39,332 nucleotides of DNA from Diploschistes diacapsis. Lineage: Eukaryota. The translations under genes were made by a program, and so were the position numbers. Positions 1 through 35,375 of this stretch are shown in pieces. Under the pieces are notes generated by a model that did no database searches, was not told where the DNA came from, and was given only the letters and a program-made list of their open reading frames with translations. The stretch is taken from assembly GCA_023645945.1 (NCBI GenBank), contig JALAIB010000054.1, forward strand, positions 1 to 39,332. The letters are read 5' to 3'. Position 1 is the first letter of the stretch; each line of letters starts with the position of its first letter.

Positions 1-39
1 TCGCGATCTTTAGAAACAAAGTTTCTATATTATTATAGA

Positions 40-209
40 TGTAACGCCCAAAGGTGCGCCCTGGGGTTCAGGTCCCCCCGCTGCCACAGCCACGCACCTA
101 CATATAGTGTAATAGGGAAACAGTGCTTCGGGGTTCCTGAATGAATTGTGTACAGTCTTTTGGCTCAGTGGGATAGCGCTACCTATTAGGCACTACCCCC
201 GCTGTTACA
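40..209. mobile_element. Solo LTR of an LTR retrotransposon (about 170 bp)
   Basis: Starts TGTAAC (40) and ends GTTACA (209), i.e. TG...CA ends with a 6-bp inverted repeat. Flanked by the direct repeat TATAGA at 34-39 and 210-215 (putative TSD). Confidence 0.7.
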
Positions 210-3381: not shown

Positions 3382-5122
3382 ATGATAATGACAACCACCG
3401 TCCTCTCTGGTTCTGACGTGAATTCGTTTGACTATGTTATCATTGGCGGAGGAACAGCTGGTTGTGTAATAGCAAGCCGACTAGCCGAGTATTTGCCGGA
3501 GAAGAAAACACTACTCATTGAAGCAGGGCCAAGCGACTACCTCAACGACCGGGTATTGCTCCTTAAGAATTGGCTGTCACTGCTTGGCGGTGAATATGAC
3601 TATGGCTATCGGACAACGGAGCAAAAGATGGGTGAGTTTCTTTGTGAAAGCATAGCCTCCTCTTACAAAGTGGCGGTGCGATGAGAGGAACGACCATTTC
3701 AAGAGCAACATGATTGGTGCTAATATCTGCCCAGGGAATTCCCATATAACGCATTCCCGGGCCAAGGTACTCGGTGGCTGTTCTTCTCATAATACATTGA
3801 TCTCTTTCAGGCCGTTTGAATATGACTGCAGACGTTGGGAGGAGGCCGGATGTCAAGGTTGGTCATTTCAGACCTTTACCCGTTTGCTTGATAAGTTGCG
3901 GAATACTGTTCAGCCGGTTCAGAGCAGGCACAGAAACCAACTTTGCAAGGATTGGATAGAGTCATGCTCCACTGCTCTTAATGTCCCTGTCATTGAAGAT
4001 TTCAACCATGAGATTAGGTCGAAGGGAGGCTTTCAAAACGGTGTAGGCTTCTTCAATGTCAGTTACAATCCAGATGATGGTCGTCGCTCTAGCGCTTCTG
4101 TTGCATATATTCACCCTATTCTTCGAGGTGATGAGCGGCGCCCAAATCTGACCATCTTGACAAATGCATGGGTCTCAAGGGTCAACGTGACTGATTCGGT
4201 TGTTACTGGTGTCAATATTAAGCTTCAGAACGGGACCCCTTTGACCATAGCACCAAAAATCGAGACTGTTTTGTGTGCCGGAGCAGTCGATACTCCAAGG
4301 TTACTGCTCTTGTCTGGCATTGGTCCAAAGCAACAGCTTCAGGATCTCGACATTCCCATCGTCAAGGATATTCAAGGTGTTGGTAGCAATCTTCTGGATC
4401 ATCCAGAGACGATCATACTGTGGGAACTCAATCGACCAGTGCCCCCTAACCAGACCACCATGGACTCAGACGCTGGTTTGTTTCTCCGACGTCAAGACCC
4501 AAATGCAGCAGGTTCGGATGGTGTAGCTGCCGATATCATGATGCACTGCTATCAGATTCCCTTTTGCGATAATACCTCACGACTTGGCTACGATAGACCT
4601 GAAAATGCTTTTTGCATGACACCGAACATTCCGAGGCCACGATCAAGAGGGCGGCTTTACCTCCTGTCGAAAGACCCAGCCGTTCACCCAGCACTAGATT
4701 TTCAATACTTTACCGATCCAGAAGGATATGATGCTGCAACAATCGTTGCTGGCTTTAAAGCTGCTCGAGAGGTTGCGAAGCAAGAGCCCTTCAAATCTTG
4801 GATCAAGCGGGAAATAGCTCCAGGACCCAATATTACATCGGACGAAGCACTCAGTGAGTACGGCCGCCGTGCAGCACATACAGTGTACCACCCGGCTGGT
4901 ACGACGAAGATGGGTAACATCGATAGCGACAACATGGCAGTTGTAGACCCTAAGTTGAGACTAAGAGACGTCAAGAAAATCAGGATTGCGGATGCTGGAG
5001 TGTTCCCAGAGATGCCGACTATCAACCCGATGCTTACGGTTCTGGCCATAGGCGAGAGGGCGGCAGAAATTATTGCTGAGGAGGCAGGATGGAGCGGATT
5101 GGGCGAGAAAGCCAGGCTGTAG
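3382..5122 (+). CDS. codA: Choline oxidase (GMC oxidoreductase); exons 3382-3631 and 3735-5122
   Basis: FAD-binding IIGGGTAG; LGGCSSHN (flavinylated His motif as in Arthrobacter choline oxidase); TVYHPAGT; INP. Intron 3632-3734 (GTGAGT...GCTAA...CAG). Start is 3382 or 3388. C-terminus ARL. Confidence 0.88.
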
Positions 5123-5489
5123 ACACCCAGGCTCAACTACATATTGAATAAATTCTCTCAGTTGAATATTAGCCTTCAATCTTATTAGATTGCATCAGTC
5201 AACGAGTCTAGAATCAACTGCTTTCAACATTTAACGATTGCAACTGTATTGTCCTACTATATCACGATCTGGTTGATGTGGTCTGTGTGGGTGACGCCCC
5301 TTGTGAAAAACCTGTCGGATGGAAAATTCGCAAGGAGCGCAAATCTCTGGCATATACGTAAAAGTCGTTAGACAATGTGGGCACTATTTAGAGTGCTTGT
5401 ACTTGGACCATTATGTTGCGAAATTTGATATTATAATATACTTGCAGGATTGAATACTCAAGAGGCGCATGCAGGACGACGGCTAAGAG

Positions 5490-8400
5490 ATGCAAGCCCA
5501 ATACCACATTCACCATGGAACATCTGCTCTATCGGACATTCGAAGTCGAATTTTGGCGGAAAGGATTGGTGCTGACGAGGTCAAATCAAGATACGTTCAC
5601 TACGTCGCTTTAAAAGAAGCTCTGAACCAAAAAGACCAAGCTATCCTAGACCAGCTGCTTGCTTATGACGATGTACCTTATCAGGAATCGCCAGACCAGA
5701 ATATAAAACCTGGCTCACGGACTTACAAATTCTACATATCACCTCGAACAGGCACGATATCATCATGGAGTTCAAAAGCTACAAGCATTGCCCATGTGTG
5801 CGGCTTCAGGGGAAAGGTCAAACGCATCGAAAGAGGCACCATCTTCTTTGTGACTACAAGCGCCGAGGTGGATAGTGATATACCGTCATTCGCAGACGAG
5901 ATCTACGACCGTATGATCCAGGCAATCAGCAGAAATCCGCCTGACTTGGATACCATGTTTGCTGAGTCTGCCCCGGCGCCTGCTACAGTGATCCCTATTC
6001 ATGATCAAAAGGTTGATCCACAAAAGGCTCTCGAGGATGCTAACAAGACCTTAGGACTTGCTCTCGATACCTCGGAAATTGACTATCTAGTGCAAGTATA
6101 TGGAAAGGACGGTCCGTTGCACAGAAACCCCTATCTTGAGGAACTCTTCATGTTTGCCCAGATCAACTCGGAACACTGTCGTCACAAGCAGTTCAATGCA
6201 TCCTGGACGATCGATGGCGAGGAAAAGCCTTATACCCTCTTCAGCATGATCCGAAACACTCACCAAAAGTCTCCGAAGCACGTCGTGAGCGCCTACAGTG
6301 ATAACGCTGCTGTTCTCGAAGGCTATCAGGGTAGCTTCCTTGCCCCAGACTGGGTCACTGGCATCTGGACACAAACAAACGAGCAAGTTCACTACCTTGC
6401 AAAGGTCGAGACCCATAACCACCCAACCGCAGTATCTCCGTACCCTGGAGCAGCTACAGGGTCCGGAGGCGAGATAAGGTAGGCCCGCTTCTCATCTAAT
6501 TGGCATAGCTAAAGTGTATAAGAGACGAAGGGTCTGTAGGGAGAGGCTCGAAGCCCAAGACAGGCCTTTGCGGTTTTGCGGTCTCCGATTTGAACATTCC
6601 AGGTTTTAAACAGCCTTGGGAGATTGACATAGGAAAGCCCGGTCACATCGCTTCCAGTCTCACTATCATGTTGGAAGCGCCACTTGGAGCTGCGGATTAC
6701 AACAACGAGTTTGGAAGGCCCTGCACATCAGGATTTTTCCGAACTTTACTTGTTAAGGTGCCGATTGGAGGAGGGACTTCCGAGTTCCGAGGCTACCACA
6801 AGCCAATCATGCTCGCTGGTGGACTCGGTACTGTCCGGCCTCAGTTGGCTTTGAAGGGCGCTGATATAGTTCAACCTGGTGCTTCTACAATAGTCCTTGG
6901 TGGCCCCTCCATGTTAATAGGACTCGGAGGAGGTGCGGCGAGCAGTGTCGCTAGTAACGAGGCAAATGTACACCTAGACTTTGCCAGTGTCCAGCGTGGA
7001 AACGCAGAAGTTCAAAGGCGGGCACAAGAAGTGATAAATACCTGTGCTGCAATGGGTTCCGACTCGCCTATATTATTCATCCATGACGTCGGCGCTGGCG
7101 GGTTATCAAATGCTCTACCTGAGTTGGTCCACGATTCGAATCTAGGTGCAACTTTTCATCTTCGCGAAATTGATAATGCGGATTCTTCCATGAGCCCTTT
7201 GCAAATCTGGAGCTGTGAGGCTCAGGAGCGCTATGTTATAGCGGTAGCGAAAGAGAATATGAAAACTTTCAAGACGATTGCTGACAGGGAGAGGTGTGGT
7301 TATTCGGTTGTGGGCAGAATTACAGGGGAGCAGAACAAAGAAGAGCGCATCATACTTGTGGACAGAGACTCTCATGATCACCCTACTCCGATCGATCTCC
7401 CCATGTCTGTCCTGTTCGGTAAGCCTCCAAGAATGAGGAAGAATGTCGAGTCGAGACAACTGCCTTTGCCACCATTTGATAGCAGCCTTTCCACGTACTT
7501 GCCCGGAGTCTTGGCCGAGGGTCTTCTTCAAGAAGCGATTAATCGAGTTCTTGCTCTACCTTCGGTAGGGTCGAAGAGTTTCTTGATTACGATAGGCGAT
7601 AGGACCGTTGGTGGGCTCACTGCAAGAGACCAGATGGTCGGCAAATGGCAGACGCCTGTGGCCGATGTCTCGGTCACCGCAACTTCGCTGACACTGGGTA
7701 TCAAGACAGGCGAAGCGATGGCGATTGGCGAAAAGCCCACGCTGGCGCTGATATCCCCTGCTGCATCGGCTAGAATGGCAGTAGCAGAATCGCTGCTGAA
7801 CTTGGCGGCTGCATGTCTGGATACTCGATTACAAAAGGTCAGGTTATCTGCGAACTGGATGTGCGCAAGCAGCCACCCCGGTGAAGGCGCTGCCATTTAC
7901 GAAGCAGTGGAGGCAATCGGTATGAAATTGTGTCCAAGCTTAGAAATCAGTATCCCAGTTGGAAAGGACTCTATGAGTATGAAGATGAAATGGACTGATA
8001 CGGACTGTAAAGAGACGCAAGAGGTTTCTGCCCCTTTGTCACTTGTCATTACTGCCTTTGCTCCAGTCCTAGACATCACCAAGACGTGGACGCCGGCCTT
8101 GCAAAGGGTCGAAGACGTTGGTGAGACTGTCATCCTGCTTGTAGACCTAGCTCAGGGCCGTAAGGCACTCGGCGGATCAGCCCTCAGGTAAGACGGACTC
8201 TGTAGGAGTAAATTGGAGATCTTCGCTGAAAACTATTAGTCAAGTATTTGGCCAGGTGGGAGACGTGGCTCCAGATGTACATGACGTGCAGCTGCTCAAA
8301 GATTATTTCGACGCGATGGAGCAGTTACAAGACGCCGGGATCGTACTAGCTTACCATGATCGGTCTGACGGCCTTTTTGTTACTCTAGTAGAGATGATGT

Positions 8401-18230: not shown

Positions 18231-18756
18231 TCTACTGGCCTGACTTTGCTGAATGCTTCTAGAGAAGATATATCAAAGGTTGGATAGGACCGAAAGTGCT
18301 CCTTACTTGCTGCAGACCAGGTTATAGTTTACATGCTCTAAATATCGGTACTTGCCTTGATATTTATACTCACTATAACGAACAACAAAGCTCATTGTCC
18401 ACAAGCTTTCGAGTAGCCACCGATCACTGCTTCAAGCCCGAGATTCCGATACATCCTTATCAGCCCGGGAAACAAGCTTTGAGCTTACTGATTGAAAGTT
18501 TTGCTCTGAAATCTGTACCTAGAGATGAAGGTATGACTCTTTACATTAGCTTTCTAGCTACTGCACATCTAATGAGTCAAGAATGTGGACGTCCGAAAGA
18601 TCTCCGGTAAACGTTGAAGGTTATCGGAGTTAGCAGAAATGTCCTTAAGTGACGCCTGCCAAGTCTTTAGCCATTGGTTAGCGCAGCTGCGCTGGATCAA
18701 AAGAGAACTTCTCTGATACCCTGTCAACCTTTTCGTCCTGTGCTTCAACGTCAGGC

Positions 18757-19840
18757 ATGACTTCGCTTGACCAACTTCAAGTCCCTCCCGACGAATCGTT
18801 ATATGACTCATGGGAGGAAGCAAGAGCTGCCTTGCAAGAATGGGCGGTAAAGGATAAGTACGCTTGCATCCCCCAGTCCTTCCCACACCGCCCTGCCTGC
18901 TCAAGCTACCCCCAGATTCGCCTACATAACACCCCGCAAAGATGTCGCGCGCGGGGAGTACGTCTGCGCGGCTACCAACTGCCCCTGGCATGTAACAGCC
19001 ACCAAAACAGCCAATGGGCAGATCCGGCTGCGCGTCGTCGAGCGCGCACACAACCCTTCCTCCCCTCATGCCCGCCGCAGCGCCGCCCTCTCCTGGCTCC
19101 TCGACACAATCCCCAAGATCCTCCCCATCTCCCCCGCCACGACGCCGCAGGATATTGCGCAGGCTATCCGCGCCCACTATGACGAGCGCGTTGACTACCA
19201 GCAGGCGTACCGCTGCCTGCAGCAGATCGCGGGCGACATCCGGCAGCCACGGCATCGGATTAACGTTCCGGATTCGCTGCGCAAGGCCGTCATCACGCTG
19301 CGAGCCTTTCAGGGGCTAGACTGGGCAGACATAGAGCGCAAGACGGGCGTCAAGGCCACGACGGCGGCGTACATCTACAAGCAGGCGCACAAGAAGTCCG
19401 GGTTCAGCACCGACCCGCTAAGGTTGCTAGAGCATTCGGCGGCTAAACCGGGGGGGCCGGCGCCAGGCAATGATCTGAAGAAGATGAGAGAGAGGACGAG
19501 GGCGAAGAGCAAGCAGGCGTTGAGCTTGGAGTTCGCGAGGCAGAACCTTGTGGCCATGCACGCAGAGAGGGAAAGGGTGGCGGCGGCAGGGGTTGGAGGA
19601 GTTATGCCGGAGATCCCCGGTGTAGACGTTGCGATGCAGCTTGCCGGGGCCGCGGATGGAATGTCTCGTGATAGAGCCGGCGAAGGCGGAGCAGAGTTCG
19701 GAGCTCCGAGTTCCGGAGGCGATTCTCTGTTTGGCACGCCGGTTGCGACCCCGATGCAGTCAATGGGTGAACCTAGAGATGAAGGCCAGGCGCTACAGAA
19801 CCGGGAGCTCAGCCCTACTTCTGAGGCTTTGGCTACGTAA
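18757..19840 (+). CDS. Transposase-derived DNA-binding protein (MuDR/FAR1-like Zn domain plus Tc1-like HTH, no DDE domain), about 341 aa; exons 18757-18857 and 18916-19840
   Basis: Intron 18858-18915 (GTACGC...CAG) gives one continuous frame into ORF 19424-19840. Motifs: YDSWEEARAALQEWAVKDKFAY...YVCAATNCPWHVTA...AH; TPQDIAQAIRAHYDERVDYQQAYR; LRKAVITLRAFQGLDWADIERKTGVKATTAAYIYKQA. Confidence 0.72.
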
Positions 19841-20237
19841 CAGGGATGGTTTCGCGGGCGGAAATCAAGGAGCGTCCTCCTTAGAGTCACAGCGTGCTTG
19901 AGAGCGTACATGACATCTGTTAAGGTATCTTTTAGGCTTCTGACACCATTGGGGCTGCAGTCTTTCCGTCAAAATTTCAAAATCTTATGGACTTTCCACC
20001 TAGCCACTAACTAGCGTAGACCCTAATGGTGAAAGTCTTTAAGTATCGTAAATTGGGTCTAGGTACGAGAGCTGGAAAGCCCTCCGGAGCGCACGGTCAG
20101 TACATCAAGAAAAGCCGGACCTAGACTCAATAAACATAACAGTGTAAAATTCACGTGGTGCACGTTGGTAATCAACGCACGTTGTGTTTTGCAAAGCAAA
20201 TATGATAGCTCGCTATGAACCTAGCGTTGTCGCCTCG

Positions 20238-27046: not shown

Positions 27047-30000
27047 ATGGATCTTGAAGCCCCTCAAGAAAAGCCCGAAATTACATCAGCACATTCACAG
27101 AGGGACAGACTTAGCCCTCGATCGCCATATCAACCAAATGCAGTGTCTCAATATCCACTAAGTAGTGTCGAGAGGCCTGCATCTTCTACCTCTTTCTTAA
27201 ATACCTCGTCAGCAAGCATACCACGGACTGAGCAGAGGAGGTACGACATAGCATGGAATTGATTGTTTTATTGATTCGAAGACCTGACTTTCGAAAGCTC
27301 GTCGACCTCTTCGTTGCCTTATCGGTTTCATCTTAACAATGACCGCAATCCGCTCGATCCTAGGCCTAACGGCTCGCCTATCCCCTCGTCTCACTCCTTC
27401 TTTCGAACTTCTTCTGGATCGCTGCCTTCAAAGACTCACTATTCTGTCGACTCAATCGCCAAGGCGGTCGCAAGCTTCAATGTGAATGGTGAGATAGGGG
27501 CCACGACGCCGGAGCGGCCGCACTCCGCATTTGAGGTCAATTGCAACTTTCCCAACCCTGAAGTTATTGATGCCTTTCTTTCCTCGTCAATCGGAAAGCT
27601 ACCGAGAGAGCAGGTCGCTTCCACTTGGAATGATTCGCAGCCCTATGACTCCAGCAGAGAGCCAAAACCAAACCACGATTATTTCTCTGAACGTTTCCAG
27701 CAAGTGCTTAAGGACGGAAAGCTGTTAGCTTCGAATGTAAAGAGCGTTTTGAGCCATTACACGGCTCTAGATCGTGCTCAAATCAGCCGACTTCAAGACT
27801 GTGCAGCTGACTACGCTCAGAGCGGTACAGGCGCGACGCGAGCCATCGGCATCCTTGGTGACTCTGGGTCAGGTAGTGTTCTACCCACAAGCTTTCTGCA
27901 CTCTACTGAAACATAAAAAGGCAAAAGTAGATTGATAAACTCGTTACTAGATTGTGAGATAGCAAAAACGGTAAGCGGCTTCTTGATCTTTTGCGAATTC
28001 ACACTAATACCCAGAAGTCCAACTCTGGAGAAGCTGTTACGTCCGTGATTATGGAATTCAGATGGTTAGCAGAGCCTAGTACTGCGCCTTTCAAGGTTGA
28101 AATGCATTTCTGCAATCAGAGCGAAAGCGACGAGTTGATTAAGGAGCTTGTTCGGAGCTACCGCGGCATCCATCTTCTGCAACTTGATGGGGATGAAATT
28201 AGTGCTTCAGAGTGTGAAGAGGTAGAAAGAAGACATGAAGTGGCATGGTCTGCTCTCAGTGCGGCGTTTGGCCATCACAGGCAGTTGAAGAGTCTTTGCG
28301 ATAAAAAGACTGAAAACGCAAATGATGAGGTCGTTGCTCAGCTGTCTACTTGGTTCGCCGATCTTCAATGGCCTAGCGGCTCTCAAAATGGGAGATGGGA
28401 ATCACCCTTCGAATCAGCCAACGATTGTCTAAACATGACATCAAACCTGATGGAGGATAGATTTTGGCCATTCATCAAGATCATTCGGTAGGCGTTCTAT
28501 GTTTGTCTGACTAAATCCCTGTGTACTGACTAATTATACACAAGGGTTTATTTGAAGGCACCAATCTTGGAAACTGGGCTAGTCTTGGTTGACATGCCAG
28601 GTACGCAAGCGAACTCCTCCATATCTTTCCAAGACTAAATGCCACATCTTAGGACTGCGAGATGTGAATTTAGCCAAAGTCAAAGCCACTGAAGAGCATC
28701 TGTTCAAGACTGACCACATCTTCATCGTATCACCTATTGGTCGAGCAGTATCGAGCCGATCAGTGAAAGAGTCTTTGATTACAGTGTTTGGAGCATCAAA
28801 ACAGCATGTGCCGGTCAGTTCTGATGAGCACGAAGCCCGTCACCCTCGGGTGACCATAGTCTGTACTCATTCAGAGATATCGAATGTCAGTCTCATGATG
28901 AATTTTAGTATATTATAACGGCGACTAATACGAACAGGACATGACCGCAGAAGAGTTGAAACGAAAATATGTACTTAATAGAATGGTAGATGCAAGCTCC
29001 GTCGATAAGCTAGAGAAACAGCACGACATGGCAAAACGGAACGAAAATCAACTGGAGCAGCACAGGGTTAAACAAGAGTTAGTATATCTTCTCTCCAAAA
29101 CAATGTGCTCTAGCCCGAAATCCAAGCATCAACTTATGGCCCGTAGGTTGAAGCACATACTTATGAAGGCGCGCAGCGACGATGTTACTACAAAGATAGA
29201 GAGCAAATACGCCGGTCAAACGCATGGACAACTAATAGAGGTCTTCTGCGTTGCCAACTCCGAGTACTTCGATTGTTCTCGCAAAGGTGATATCACTGGA
29301 GTCAACGCGTCTGGGATTCCAGCACTGAGACGTCGCTGCTACATGGTCTCAGCCGATGCTAGTCTTCTTGAAGCCAGGAATTATCTTCTTTCAACCTTGC
29401 CTAGTCTACTGGAGTCAACCAAATTATGGATACAATCACTTAGTGGTCAGTGCAGGAAAAGTTCGGGGGAGCGGGAAAAAGCCAAAGAAAATGTGGAACA
29501 GCTCACAACACTGGTATGCTCGACGATGAGTACTTTGCGTTGGTGCTAAATGATGTAGACTCGGGCATCAATTGGAGGTCTAGAACTGGCCTCGAAAGAA
29601 TCGTTCTCTGAGAACATCTCGAACCTCATAGGTTATTTCCCTCAGCCGATTGTTTTCCTCGCTCTGACGCGCGATAGAATTCGGCACTAAACGAAAGGGA
29701 AATGGAACCACTATAGGGTTGAAACCGTCTGGATGGGAAAGTGCCGCATTGGAGAAGAGCATGGAGTGGGAAAGAGTAAGAGGATTCCGAGTGTCAGAAC
29801 TTTGACATCATGCTAACAAGAATCTTAGTGGCCGCATTGTAGAAACCGCAATTCCTTGTTCTTCCATGCCTTGGCTGATTCTTTACAGCTTCATACAGTG
29901 CATGGTGCCGCCATGACGGTACCCATTGCACCATCGTGCGAGGCCCTGTACGATGGAACATGGAACTCATCTGGAAAATGCGTTGCGAGATCGAGGTGCA

Positions 30001-31571: not shown

Positions 31572-34500
31572 ATGTTCAACGTAAGCGTTCAGCTACTGAG
31601 CTTGCGGCTGCTGACCCGAATTAGCGCTTGAAAGGGGCAATAGACTCACGCATCGCGGAGGAACAAGCGCGCCAGAGATCCTTCCAAGCTCCGCAGGCCC
31701 GAGCCGGTTCAAATACTAGGAGACAGTCTGCAAGAGCTGCATCTCCTGCCCTTAGGCCACCAAGGGCCTCCTCTATAGATGGCAACGCAGATCCTGCGGC
31801 AAGGGGACCCGATCCCAAGGAATTTGACCCCGAGTTTGTTCTAGCGGATGACGATGATGCGTCTACGATGGCTACGACGCCTCTGCCCAGCCAGAGCAAA
31901 GATATAGGAGTGGGACCTGCAGAGAAGGCTAGTGAAAGACCAATAGGCTCCGAAAATGCAGGGCAAATGGAGAAAGATGATGTGGATGCTACAAGTGCAG
32001 CATCAAGTGCAGCTACAGAACTAGCCGCAGACATTAGGACAAAGCTTCGAAAACTTGATCGGCTAGAGCCCAGATACCAAGAGCTTCTACGGTCTTACCG
32101 GATTGCACACGCGCGTGTAGGGGCAATTGAGCTCTTCGAAGCGGCTTTGCGGGAGAATACACCTTTGACTTCGATCAACGACCCTGGAGCGCTCACGGAA
32201 TACTTGAATCAACTCAACCTCAAGAGTGATATGGTCCTTGATGAGCTTAAAAGAGTCTCTACTGAAAAAGAATTATTCAAACAAAGGCTACAGGAGTCAG
32301 AGAAGAAATACGAAGAGGCGTTAGCTAAGATTGAACAGTTTAGTATCAATGGCCAGAGAACTGAAGAAACCGCTAAAAATAACAATGATGCCGAGGAGAT
32401 ACAAGAGTCCGAAACGAAGCATGATGAACCTATATCATCTCGGCCAAGCTCACTGGATGATCAGCAGTCGCTACAAAGTCCAAAGTCTTCTTCCACTCCG
32501 GCCAAATCACAATCCCGAACCCCATCGATTGCAGGATTCTCCATTTTTTCTCCAAAATCGAAACCGGCTGATGTGGCGCCAGTCCAGAAACAAAATGAAG
32601 AGTTCTGTTCCTATGATCACGAGCTTCCGCGCTTAGAATCAGAAATTAAGGATCGCCAGACTCAAATTGAGAGCTTAGAGGGAGAGGTCAAACGTCTCAA
32701 AGGTGATCTCGCTGTTGCTAGAGAGTCGACGCAGAGCATGGTTCAGACCCTAGAAGAGTCAATGCGAGATCTCAATTCATTACGTGAGAAGAACGAACGC
32801 TATGAGATAGAGATTAAGACCGTCAAGATGGAGAAGGAGTCACAACTAAGTAATCTTCACTCCCAACTAGAAATCGCAGACCGCAAAATTCGCGAGATTG
32901 AGGCAAAAGGCGATCGCGCTGAGGTAGAAACGGAACTGAGCAAGCAAAGGGATCTTCTAGCCAACGCCAATGAGGAGCTTGAGAAACTCCAAAAGTTGAA
33001 TGAGAAGAACACGAGCGCTCTGACGGCAATGGCGCAACTAGAAAATCAGATCGCAGCGCTAAGAAAGGAAATAGGTGAGTTGCAGGAAGAGAAAGCTCGA
33101 AGTTCTACTCGTACCAACGATCTCGATGAATCGATTGCAAAGCTCCGTCAAGACTTCTCGGAGACTTTCATTGAGAAAGAGAATATCAAGTCTGAGTTGG
33201 AATCAAAATCTGAAGCGCTACTGAGACTTCAAGCGAGGCTTCAAGAGGCCGAACAGAACCCAGAAACTCAAAAAGTAGACGCAAAAGCTGGTCACAGCGA
33301 CGGCACGCCATTGCCAACCCCTACTCCGACTCCAACTTCTGAGACCGCGTCAAACAAAAAGAACAAAAAGAAGAAAAAGAAGGGCGGAAAGTCCACAATT
33401 GAGCAGGAGTCTAACCCAACAAGCTTATTACCTCCGTCAGCTTCTCTTGGAGGCGCCAGTGAAGCCTCGGTATCGCAGGATAAGGAGTCACAGCTGCAGG
33501 ATGAAGTCAGCAAATTAATTGCTCTAGTTGCTGAGAAGGATGCTGCTATTGAGAGGCTAAGCAGCAAGCTTAAGGACGAGGACAGTTTGAGAGAAGAGAT
33601 CGAATCCCTAAGGGATGATCTCATCAACCTAGGGCAAGATCATGTTGCAGCAAAAGATAGAATGAAAGCGCTCAAAGCGGAGAAGAGCTCGCTAGAAAAG
33701 ACTATCTTAGAATTAGAGAAAGAGCTGAATGATATTCGAACGTCGCATGCGGCGGAGTCATCAGGGTCTGCCCAAGCACATAAGGATTTGTCGGCACAGT
33801 TCAACGAGCTCAAGATCAAAGCTACCAGCCTTGAGACGGATCTTGCTGTTGCACGACAGTTAGCATCTTCCAGGTTCAAAGATCTTACGGCGCTCCGAAG
33901 CGTGCTGCAAAAAGACCAAACTGAATTGCTCTCGCTGCGCAAGGAGAACACAGAGCTCAAAGGCACCCAGACAGAGCTGGACAAGAAAGTGGAAGAGTTG
34001 CAGAAGATTGAGGTTCGGCATAATAACATACGGTCAGAGCTGGCCGATGTTCGGAGAAAAATGAGCGAAAAGGAGTCGGAGACGAAGGTCTTGACGCAGA
34101 AGATAAGCTTGGAGGTGAGTATTAGACAAAAAGCAGAGGATGCTCGTAGCAGGGCTAGTCAAGATCTGTCGCGTATTGAGAACGAAAAGACACAAGTCAA
34201 CGAAAGTCTTGAGAGAGCTTCTGTCAATCTGTCAAGGACCAAAGAAGAGTTAGCTAGTGCTAGGGGCCGGATCCGTGATGCTGAGGATGCATTCTCAGCG
34301 CTTCAAAGGGAGGCAGATCGTATGAAGGAAGAGATCCAGCTGAAAACAGCTCAACACGCTAGTGCTGAGAGTCTGATGAACAGTATGAGAGACCAAACTT
34401 TAGAAATGGCCACCCAGACCAAAGAGTCCCGGGAGCGATGTGACAGCCTCGAAGAAGAAATTGCCGACGCCCATCGCTTGCTTAACGAACGAAGCCGGGA

Positions 34501-35375
34501 GGCGGAGACGATGCGGAGGCTACTTGCGGAGGTTGAGGGCCGGTCAGACTCTCGAGTGCGCGAAATGAAGGAGAGGCTGGATGTGGCCCTCGAGGAGAGG
34601 GACAAGGCAGAGGATGATGCTAGTACAGCCGGCAGACGCAGGGCCAGGGAACTCGAAGAATCACGGAACAAGCTACGGGAGGCACAGCGGGATCTTAAAC
34701 GTACAGAAGAGGAGAAGGAAGAACTAGAGGTTGCTCAGCGGGATTGGAAAAAGCGGCGCGAGGATCTGGAACAGCAATCTGAGGCTGCAACGAAGGAGGC
34801 CGAGGAAGTCAGGAAAGCCATGGGTTCACTCCGCGATGCCCTAGATGACAGCGAGCGCCAAGCCCGTGACCTTGAGAAGCAGAAGGCGGGTCTACGTCGG
34901 ACTATAGAAGACACACAGCAGCGTTTGGAAAGATTACAAAAATCCAACAAGGTAAGTTTGTTTCCCATTAAATCAGCTTCCCGCTAATGCCGTTCCACAG
35001 ATGCTTGCAGAGGAAGTGCGGTCAATGCAAGCAAAAGCGAAAAGTCAAGGGTCACAGACTCAATCGCCAAGGTCGTCAATCGATTCCTCGGCTGCGCGGT
35101 CGAAGCTGTTGTCGCCACCGCCAAAAGGCACCAGTACCCCCACCAGTACGGAAGGCACGAATGGGCAAGCAGTTGCTTCGACGGACTACCTGAAGAATGT
35201 CCTCTTACAGTTCCTGGAGCAGAAGGACAAGAAGCACCAAATGCAGCTCATCCCCGTACTGGGGATGCTGCTCCACTTTAACCGGTACGTCTCTTATTGA
35301 ATTTTGGCCAGTCTATCAATAACACCCTGCAGACAGGACGAAACAAAATGGATGGCTGCAATCACAGCTCGATGA
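31572..35375 (+). CDS. IMH1: GRIP-domain golgin; exons 31572-31580, 31625-34951, 35001-35284, 35333-35375
   Basis: MFN|RLKGAIDSRIAEEQAR N-terminus, about 1000 aa of coiled-coil, and C-terminal GRIP motif DYLKNVLLQFLEQKDKKHQMQLIPVLGMLLHF...W. Confidence 0.88.

Follow-up and report, generated by a model that had tools for sequence, protein, structure and literature searches.

A candidate domesticated regulator of Diploschistes diacapsis joining DNA-binding modules of Mutator-like and Tc1-like transposases without a catalytic domain

We analyzed a 39,332-nucleotide stretch of the genome of Diploschistes diacapsis, a lichen-forming ascomycete of the Graphidaceae (Ostropales), comprising positions 1–39,332 of contig JALAIB010000054.1 (GenBank assembly GCA_023645945.1) and termed the window throughout. 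In the best-supported reading, which we consider probable, positions 18757–19840 hold an intact two-exon gene whose product is a DNA-binding fusion without a catalytic domain, used by its host as a domesticated regulator. The front part of the encoded protein (residues 1–141) can be assigned firmly to the N-terminus of an HxC-type transposase of Mutator-like elements (MULE), adopting a WRKY-GCM1 fold. For the helix-turn-helix (HTH) module that follows, we accept a putative descent from the N-terminus of a Tc1/mariner/IS630-like transposase, where the last link of the homology chain is sub-threshold and stems from one degenerate copy. Domestication itself is plausible but unproven, judged as it is from sequence comparison.

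Gene structure and splicing

Joining positions 18757–18857 to 18916–19840 resulted in a coding sequence (CDS) of 1026 nt, corresponding to 341 codons and a stop codon with no internal stops. The program-made list of open reading frames (ORFs) shows the gene only as fragments (18757–19182, 141 aa; 19424–19840, 138 aa), because the frame 18851–19840, open over 329 codons, contains no ATG, GTG or TTG before position 19424. The original prediction of a gene missed by the ORF track, in which removal of a 58-nt intron leaves a stop-free frame of 341 aa, was thus borne out by the joined CDS as well as by the alignment of homologues. The deposited model of the same gene, P0002 (354 aa), uses the identical donor site with a 19-nt intron at 18858–18876. 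The features of the gene are the following:

18757–18857, + strand: exon 1, 33 codons plus 2 bases, with the start codon and the N-terminal helix ahead of the zinc finger
18858–18915, + strand: intron, 58 nt, GT..AG, phase 2, whose removal restores the frame
18916–19840, + strand: exon 2, with the stop codon at 19838–19840 (translation, tblastn)
18917–19069, + strand: WRKY-GCM1-type zinc-finger sheet, residues 35–85 of the 341-aa protein (Foldseek, VIA-align 2, alignment A7)
19088–19237, + strand: three-helix middle region common to MULE transposases, residues 92–141 (tblastn, structure model)
19247–19459, + strand: HTH module and Gly/Pro linker, residues 145–215 (BLASTP, hhalign, tblastn, structure model)
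19472–19585, + strand: long basic helix, residues 220–257 (helix 233–270 in the P0002 model, with a predicted local distance difference test score, pLDDT, of 69–87)
19586–19837, + strand: low-complexity tail with a short conserved helix motif at about 19628–19654 and a weakly conserved C-terminal motif (pLDDT below 60)

The 58-nt intron is favored over the deposited one, and the 341-aa gene model is supported as the correct one by comparison with its homologues. Across the junction formed by removing 58 nt, the protein aligned without gaps to P0079 (Gomphillus americanus CAF9922477.1), P0009, P0012 and P0013. Likewise, the product of exon 1 aligned from residue 1 onwards with P0070, P0079 and the MULE relatives P0009, P0012 and P0013, and its N-terminal helix, comprising residues 19–32, exhibited pLDDT values of 91–96 in the AlphaFold2 model. 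That the deposited 354-aa product is the true one appears highly improbable: the 19-nt intron is also in frame and also bounded by GT..AG, but the 13 residues that it adds face gaps in all aligned homologues covering that stretch and reach a pLDDT below 50 in the structure model, and 19 nt is far shorter than known fungal spliceosomal introns. Because both the homologues and the intron length argue for the 58-nt intron, the public model most probably carries 13 spurious residues.

Exactly where the intron lies, P0070 displays a 19-residue insert and the called ORFs of P0004 and P0068 have their start, whereas the ORF runs on without a break in the six MULE relatives whose N-termini are part of alignment A7. 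This pattern is consistent with an intron already carried by the ancestor of the fusion family described below and lacking in its transposase relatives. A word-based protein search with the exon-2 translation returned as its sole match the deposited D. diacapsis hypothetical protein itself.

The front half corresponds to a MULE transposase N-terminus

An exhaustive phmmer search of 1.84e9 representatives at E ≤ 1e-3 yielded 58 matching proteins, the 58th being a fragment of the query itself, and the remaining 57 were scanned further. PF03108 was detected in 43 of these 57 homologues at E ≤ 0.01, with 35 reaching the 25-bit cut-off, and the MULE core PF10551 and SWIM were found in 8 and 3 of them, respectively. 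The PF10551 carriers P0018, P0035, P0038, P0039, P0051, P0056 and P0060 matched with phmmer E-values of 2e-8 to 8e-4, calculated over the whole library. Pfam AFT (PF08731) was recognized in 4 of the 57 homologues (E 2.5e-4 to 6e-3) and did not appear among the matches of the window protein up to E = 10. Pfam gave no match in the window protein to a MULE/DDE catalytic domain (PF10551, PF00872) or to SWIM.

We obtained an AlphaFold2 model of P0002 using the 58 phmmer rows; its numbering includes the 13 extra residues of the deposited product. The mean pLDDT was 75.9, with values above 90 in the folded parts and of 90–97 in the finger, and the predicted structure contains the four-stranded WRKY-GCM1 fold with an N-terminal helix. 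The best Foldseek match in the PDB was AFT2 (4lmg; E 1.8e-3, probability 1.00), followed by plant WRKY domains (WRKY18, WRKY1, WRKY33 and WRKY11). AFT2 also ranked first among the 48,161 chains compared with VIA-align 2, with a Z-score of 7.7, a root-mean-square deviation (rmsd) of 2.5 Å and 73 aligned residues over model positions 11..96; this Z-score is middling by the program's own caution and agrees with the sequence evidence. Three of the four zinc ligands are retained in the window protein (Cys51, Cys56 and His79), and the cysteine of the HxC pair is replaced by Pro81. The helices at positions 105–153 of the P0002 model, covering the middle region, exhibited pLDDT values of 84–97. A PDB sequence search with P0002 gave nothing meaningful (best E 0.22), the family profile A2 had no match there, and the ESM Atlas held no usable match for P0002.

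As the homologues carry PF03108 or the MULE core and the predicted fold matches AFT2 and WRKY domains, we assign the front half to a MULE N-terminus of the HxC type. The MULE-type N-terminus with a WRKY-GCM1 fold, proposed earlier from the letters only, was thereby corroborated by phmmer and Pfam homologues and, in an HHpred/Foldseek-type check, by the structural match to AFT2.

The HTH module, basic helix and tail

The tblastn matches of the MULE-core proteins P0018, P0035, P0039 and P0060 reach as far as position 19237, and P0071 matches from 19247 onwards. Beyond this junction MULE transposases run on to their catalytic domain, whereas the window protein runs into the HTH. Its helices, located at 166–207 of the P0002 model, exhibited pLDDT values of 85–97. 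Structural matches for this part tied at Z-scores of 5.3–6.2 and included the Cdc5 Myb domain, IstA, TraR/LuxR-type proteins, GerE, Tc3, Tn3 resolvase and sigma region 4; the Tc3 matches reached 5.9 for 1tc3_C (rmsd 2.8, 51 aligned) and 5.6 for 1u78. Because Tc3 ties with many other HTH classes, structure cannot name the kind of HTH. The best Pfam match was Sigma70_r4_2, sub-threshold at E 0.003, with no Tc1-type HTH family listed.

Sequence profiles were more specific. Searching longer proteins with the HTH profile gave 11 hits at E ≤ 0.01 among 7999 scored candidates, namely ten clusters of the fusion family and P0071 (E 6e-8). In BLASTP, residues 111–195 of P0001 matched residues 2–87 of P0071 with an E-value of 8e-9, the alignment starting at P0071 residue 2. 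Comparing alignments A3 and A8, which have no rows in common, hhalign returned 95.6% (E 1.1e-8). An earlier profile comparison at 99.2% was discounted, because P0054 was present on both sides. The HTH of the window protein keeps all eight invariant columns of the family.

The basic helix (residues 220–257) is possibly a nuclear-localization or DNA-contact segment, as far as the model allows. In the tail, the motif columns are kept in P0004, P0006, P0007, P0008, P0068 and P0070.

P0071 relatives and the link to Tc1/mariner transposases

The only relatives of the HTH outside the fusion family are the N-termini of the P0071 family, consisting of P0071 and relatives (8 proteins at E ≤ 1e-3), which carry this HTH at their extreme N-terminus. 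These proteins are truncated ORF calls. Pfam detected no transposase family in them: P0071, P0067 and P0072 had no family at all, and 2 of 10 members showed Sigma70_r4_2; likewise, the ESM Atlas gave no usable match for P0072 and a PDB search with profile A6 gave none. An AlphaFold model of P0072 built from 10 sequences was too poor for a fold search (pLDDT 51) and was set aside. Two short proteins, P0054 and P0067, open directly with this HTH and fall among the P0071-type N-termini; each may be another Tc1-like N-terminal fragment or an independent derivative limited to the HTH.

In metagenome contigs we located a single locus (L001), which shares 80% identity with residues 90–301 of P0072. 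This copy is frameshifted, and on its 5' side it is truncated by an oppositely oriented Plavaka-type transposase. The ORF at 6668–7048 of L001 extends the C-terminal residues of P0072 and contains an Asp...Glu motif. For this ORF, the top Pfam match was DDE_3 (E 1.4e-3; the one other row was Flu_PB1, E 0.4), the sole PDB match was the catalytic domain of Sleeping Beauty SB100X (E 0.031), covering the stretch from the second Asp to the Glu, and the sole NCBIfam match was an IS630 transposase (E 0.001). It is because these three libraries agree on the superfamily that we accept a putative Tc1/mariner/IS630 origin of the HTH. The Tc1-type HTH of the original prediction thus stands in part: a homology chain leads to the P0071-family N-termini, with its last link sub-threshold, whereas structure alone is not distinctive. 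As a side observation, the degenerate Tc1/mariner-like element (5989–7048, + strand) and the Plavaka-type element (4398–6138, − strand) of L001 have the arrangement of a nested transposon insertion.

A family of fusion proteins and its conservation

Ten clusters (90% identity) share the fusion architecture: the window protein, P0004–P0008, the fragment P0010, P0068, P0069/P0079 and P0070. Of these, P0079 is annotated in full length in Gomphillus americanus, which belongs to the same fungal family as D. diacapsis and to another subfamily. The clusters comprise 1–3 member sequences on 1–2 contigs, several of the contigs being 33–557 kb long. In metagenome contigs, 331 pattern matches yielded 0 confirmed members of the fusion family.

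We calculated a tree of the MULE-homologous part by a quick method (58 rows, 151 columns), leaving out P0003 (the query itself), P0010 and P0054 (HTH only), P0069 (the same locus as P0079) and P0005 (fewer than 50 residues in the slice). Seven of the eight family rows formed one clade with a Shimodaira–Hasegawa-like approximate likelihood ratio test (SH-aLRT) support of 94, nested among MULE N-termini. The rows nearest to this clade were the MULE fragments P0009 and P0011 (96*). The terminal branch leading to the window protein had a length of 0.7.

Pairwise identities differed markedly along the protein. Between P0079 and P0068 they amounted to 90% in the middle region, 92% in the HTH and 72% in the finger, compared to 14% in the linker and 25% in the tail. 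P0068 and P0007 shared 95% in the middle region and 96% in the HTH, compared to 44% in the linker and 45% in the tail. For the window protein and P0079 the values were 42% (finger), 31% (middle region), 53% (HTH) and 24% (tail). In these protein-level comparisons the folded modules are far better kept than linkers and tails, a pattern that would be expected under purifying selection.

Composition, repeats and surroundings of the locus

The GC content of the CDS is 0.61, with 0.70 at third codon positions (GC3), compared to a GC content of 0.495 for the whole window. Across the finger, middle and HTH parts (18917–19459) GC3 rises to 0.79–0.81, against 0.455 for exon 1 and a range of 0.45–0.70 among the 21 further long ORFs of the window. 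The high GC3 in 18917–19459 may be due to a recent arrival, to biased gene conversion or to codon bias. We also calculated two indices of repeat-induced point mutation (RIP) for 18757–19840. With a TpA/ApT of 0.71 and a (CpA+TpG)/(ApC+GpT) of 1.40, neither indicated a RIP signature in this segment, the usual thresholds being above 0.89 and below 1.03, respectively. The gene is therefore GC-rich and free of RIP-like decay, as had been noted from its sequence before.

Antisense to the CDS lie two frames open from stop to stop, 18569–19315 (− strand, 248 codons) and 19375–19968 (− strand, 197 codons), which most probably arise from its GC richness and do not represent genes.

Inverted repeats flanking the gene were not detected: all inverted pairs measure 14–15 nt and are located in neighboring coding sequence or within the CDS, in line with the earlier statement that terminal inverted repeats are not evident. 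A second copy of the gene was not found within the 39-kb window. Comparing 75 related proteins with the window by tblastn, 0 of 95 high-scoring segment pairs (HSPs) fell outside the gene, yielding no catalytic remnant there. Together with the Pfam result above, this upholds the claim that no DDE core follows the two modules, only the basic helix and the low-complexity tail. We rejected an 18-nt direct repeat (18514–18531 and 19768–19785, 17/18 identical) as an insertion scar (blastn E 0.19 within the window); its two copies are located 243 nt ahead of the start codon and near the 3' end of the CDS, and the repeat is probably due to chance.

The neighboring genes are ordinary ones, encoding an aldehyde dehydrogenase, a glucose–methanol–choline (GMC) oxidoreductase, formylglycinamidine ribonucleotide (FGAM) synthase, a sugar transporter, a PHD/SNF2 protein, a short-chain dehydrogenase/reductase (SDR), lunapark and a kinase. 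None of them yielded a transposon domain. The stop codon at 19838–19840 is about 400 nt away from the convergent lunapark gene. Elsewhere in the window, a 1120-codon open frame at 31625–34987 (+ strand) had no Pfam match at E ≤ 0.001, and more long frames without a Pfam match are located at 27275–29549.

Evaluation of the domestication reading and its alternatives

Several of these observations weigh against a domesticated two-module regulator. Within the front half, the window protein remains under the PF03108 cut-off (14.6 bits versus 25; E 0.027), as does P0079 (17.9 bits). The HxC cysteine, nearly invariant in alignment A7, is a proline in the window protein, because of which zinc binding by this copy may be impaired. 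As for the HTH, its fold is generic, and the modeled structure by itself does not point to Tc1; all three catalytic matches that connect it to this superfamily are under curated thresholds and come from one degenerate, frameshifted copy. In the tree, P0008, the closest relative in the HTH, falls outside the family clade, as a long gappy row with 33% of its columns filled. Uneven conservation is shown by transposon-encoded proteins too and does not by itself demonstrate a host function. Finally, the GC3 of exon 2 (0.70–0.81), which is at or above the top of the other ORFs of the window, could reflect a recent arrival rather than a long residence.

The fourth zinc ligand is lost in the window copy only, which would be compatible with a decaying relic, open but non-functional, even if its relatives elsewhere work. 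The terminal branch of 0.7 and the weak conservation of the tail and its C-terminal motif point in the same direction. Such decay is nonetheless quite unlikely in view of 341 codons without stop or frameshift, including the 329-codon open frame, for which we estimate a chance expectation of ~1e-4 from base composition. Intact splice sites, an HTH retaining every invariant family column and a structure model that is confident across all three folded modules likewise speak against it.

The high GC3 of exon 2, atypical for the window, also bears on a family that is still transposon-associated, i.e. a catalytic-less protein traveling on non-autonomous or composite elements, for example as a repressor binding MULE or Tc1-like ends. 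The transposase origin of both halves, a patchy family with two named species among 10 clusters and the strong divergence of the window protein from P0079 within one fungal family (31–53% identity per module) would all suit such an element. We consider it unlikely, given that the gene is present as a single copy in the window without flanking inverted repeats, within gene-dense surroundings of ordinary genes, that the clusters hold 1–3 members each with several on long contigs, and that the tree has the shape of species divergence and not of bursts. A domesticated regulator remains the reading that we favor.

Proposed origin, function and significance

In the favored reading of a domesticated regulator, residues 1–141 of the protein derive from a MULE transposase N-terminus and comprise a helix, the HxC-type WRKY-GCM1 finger and the three-helix region. 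From residue 145 onwards, the extreme N-terminus of a Tc1/mariner/IS630-like transposase, beginning at its residue 2, would contribute a PAI-like HTH and the Gly/Pro linker. The remainder of the protein consists of the basic helix and a disordered tail that carries short conserved motifs. A single fusion event is most likely, the product having presumably been inherited since then at low copy number in Graphidaceae and related lichen fungi. Possibly, a MULE transposase gene received a Tc1-like element by insertion or by splicing, and the two catalytic parts were lost later. We infer that the protein most likely acts in the nucleus by sequence-specific DNA binding via two independent modules, and its host role would be that of a transcription regulator, or of a repressor occupying transposon ends, with the tail motifs recruiting partners.

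A more specific proposal, which we put forward tentatively and hold to be somewhat doubtful, describes the family as lineage-restricted transcription factors of lichen-forming Ostropales. These would have arisen by one nested or spliced MULE–Tc1 fusion, after which finger and HTH would have worked jointly as one composite DNA-binding unit, an intron would have been gained, and the gene kept as a single-copy host gene. The targets could then be the ends of both parent transposon families, amounting to dual-specificity control, or host promoters that these transposons seeded.

The reuse of transposase DNA-binding domains as regulators is already well known. A DNA-binding fusion of two transposon superfamilies without catalytic parts was not found in the literature searched, in a search that was not exhaustive. 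If the protein is a true host factor, multi-domain transcription factors can be assembled wholly from transposon parts, and it would be a lineage-specific candidate regulator for lichen fungi, whose regulators are barely studied. Our analysis moreover corrects the deposited gene model P0002 and points to the P0071 group as an unannotated Tc1/mariner-like family missed by current Pfam models.

Comparison with known systems

The closest known kind are the fungal stand-alone WRKY-GCM1 factors derived from MULE. In the passages considered here, Babu et al. (2006; PMC1702500) describe such stand-alone proteins of the HxC family, including yeast Rcs1/Aft1 and Aft2, and mention fusions to a Zn-knuckle and to an isochorismatase, with none to an HTH in these passages. 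As in the stand-alone HxC proteins portrayed there, the finger of the window protein stems from a MULE N-terminus with the core lost, consistent with AFT2 being its best structural match; unlike them, the window protein adds the MULE middle helices and an HTH from a second transposon superfamily. It further differs from the Aft family in having no match to Pfam AFT (PF08731).

Like plant FAR1/FHY3 and MUSTANG, the window protein is a MULE derivative with an N-terminal WRKY-GCM1-type finger, which these plant regulators employ for DNA binding. Plant FAR1/FHY3-type proteins keep the MULE core and SWIM, whereas the window protein lacks both and carries a Tc1-like HTH instead. The analogy to FAR1/FHY3 drawn in the original prediction thus applies to the MULE-derived fingers of both and is otherwise loose, because those plant proteins keep the transposase core.

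With the paired-like (PAI/RED) DNA-binding domain of Tc3 and Sleeping Beauty the protein shares a three-helix HTH, found at the extreme N-terminus of its relatives and followed by a Gly/Pro/Arg-rich linker. Unlike in Tc3 and Sleeping Beauty, the RED HTH is apparently replaced by one long basic helix and no DDE domain is present.

Host–transposase fusions and derivatives include SETMAR, the KRAB-mariner fusions, CENP-B and the Pax paired domain, and the P-element KP protein is a truncated transposase that acts as a repressor. The window protein resembles all of these in that transposase DNA-binding domains would be reused without transposition. SETMAR-type cases contain one transposon domain, alone or together with host domains, whereas here both modules appear to be derived from transposases, and from two different superfamilies.

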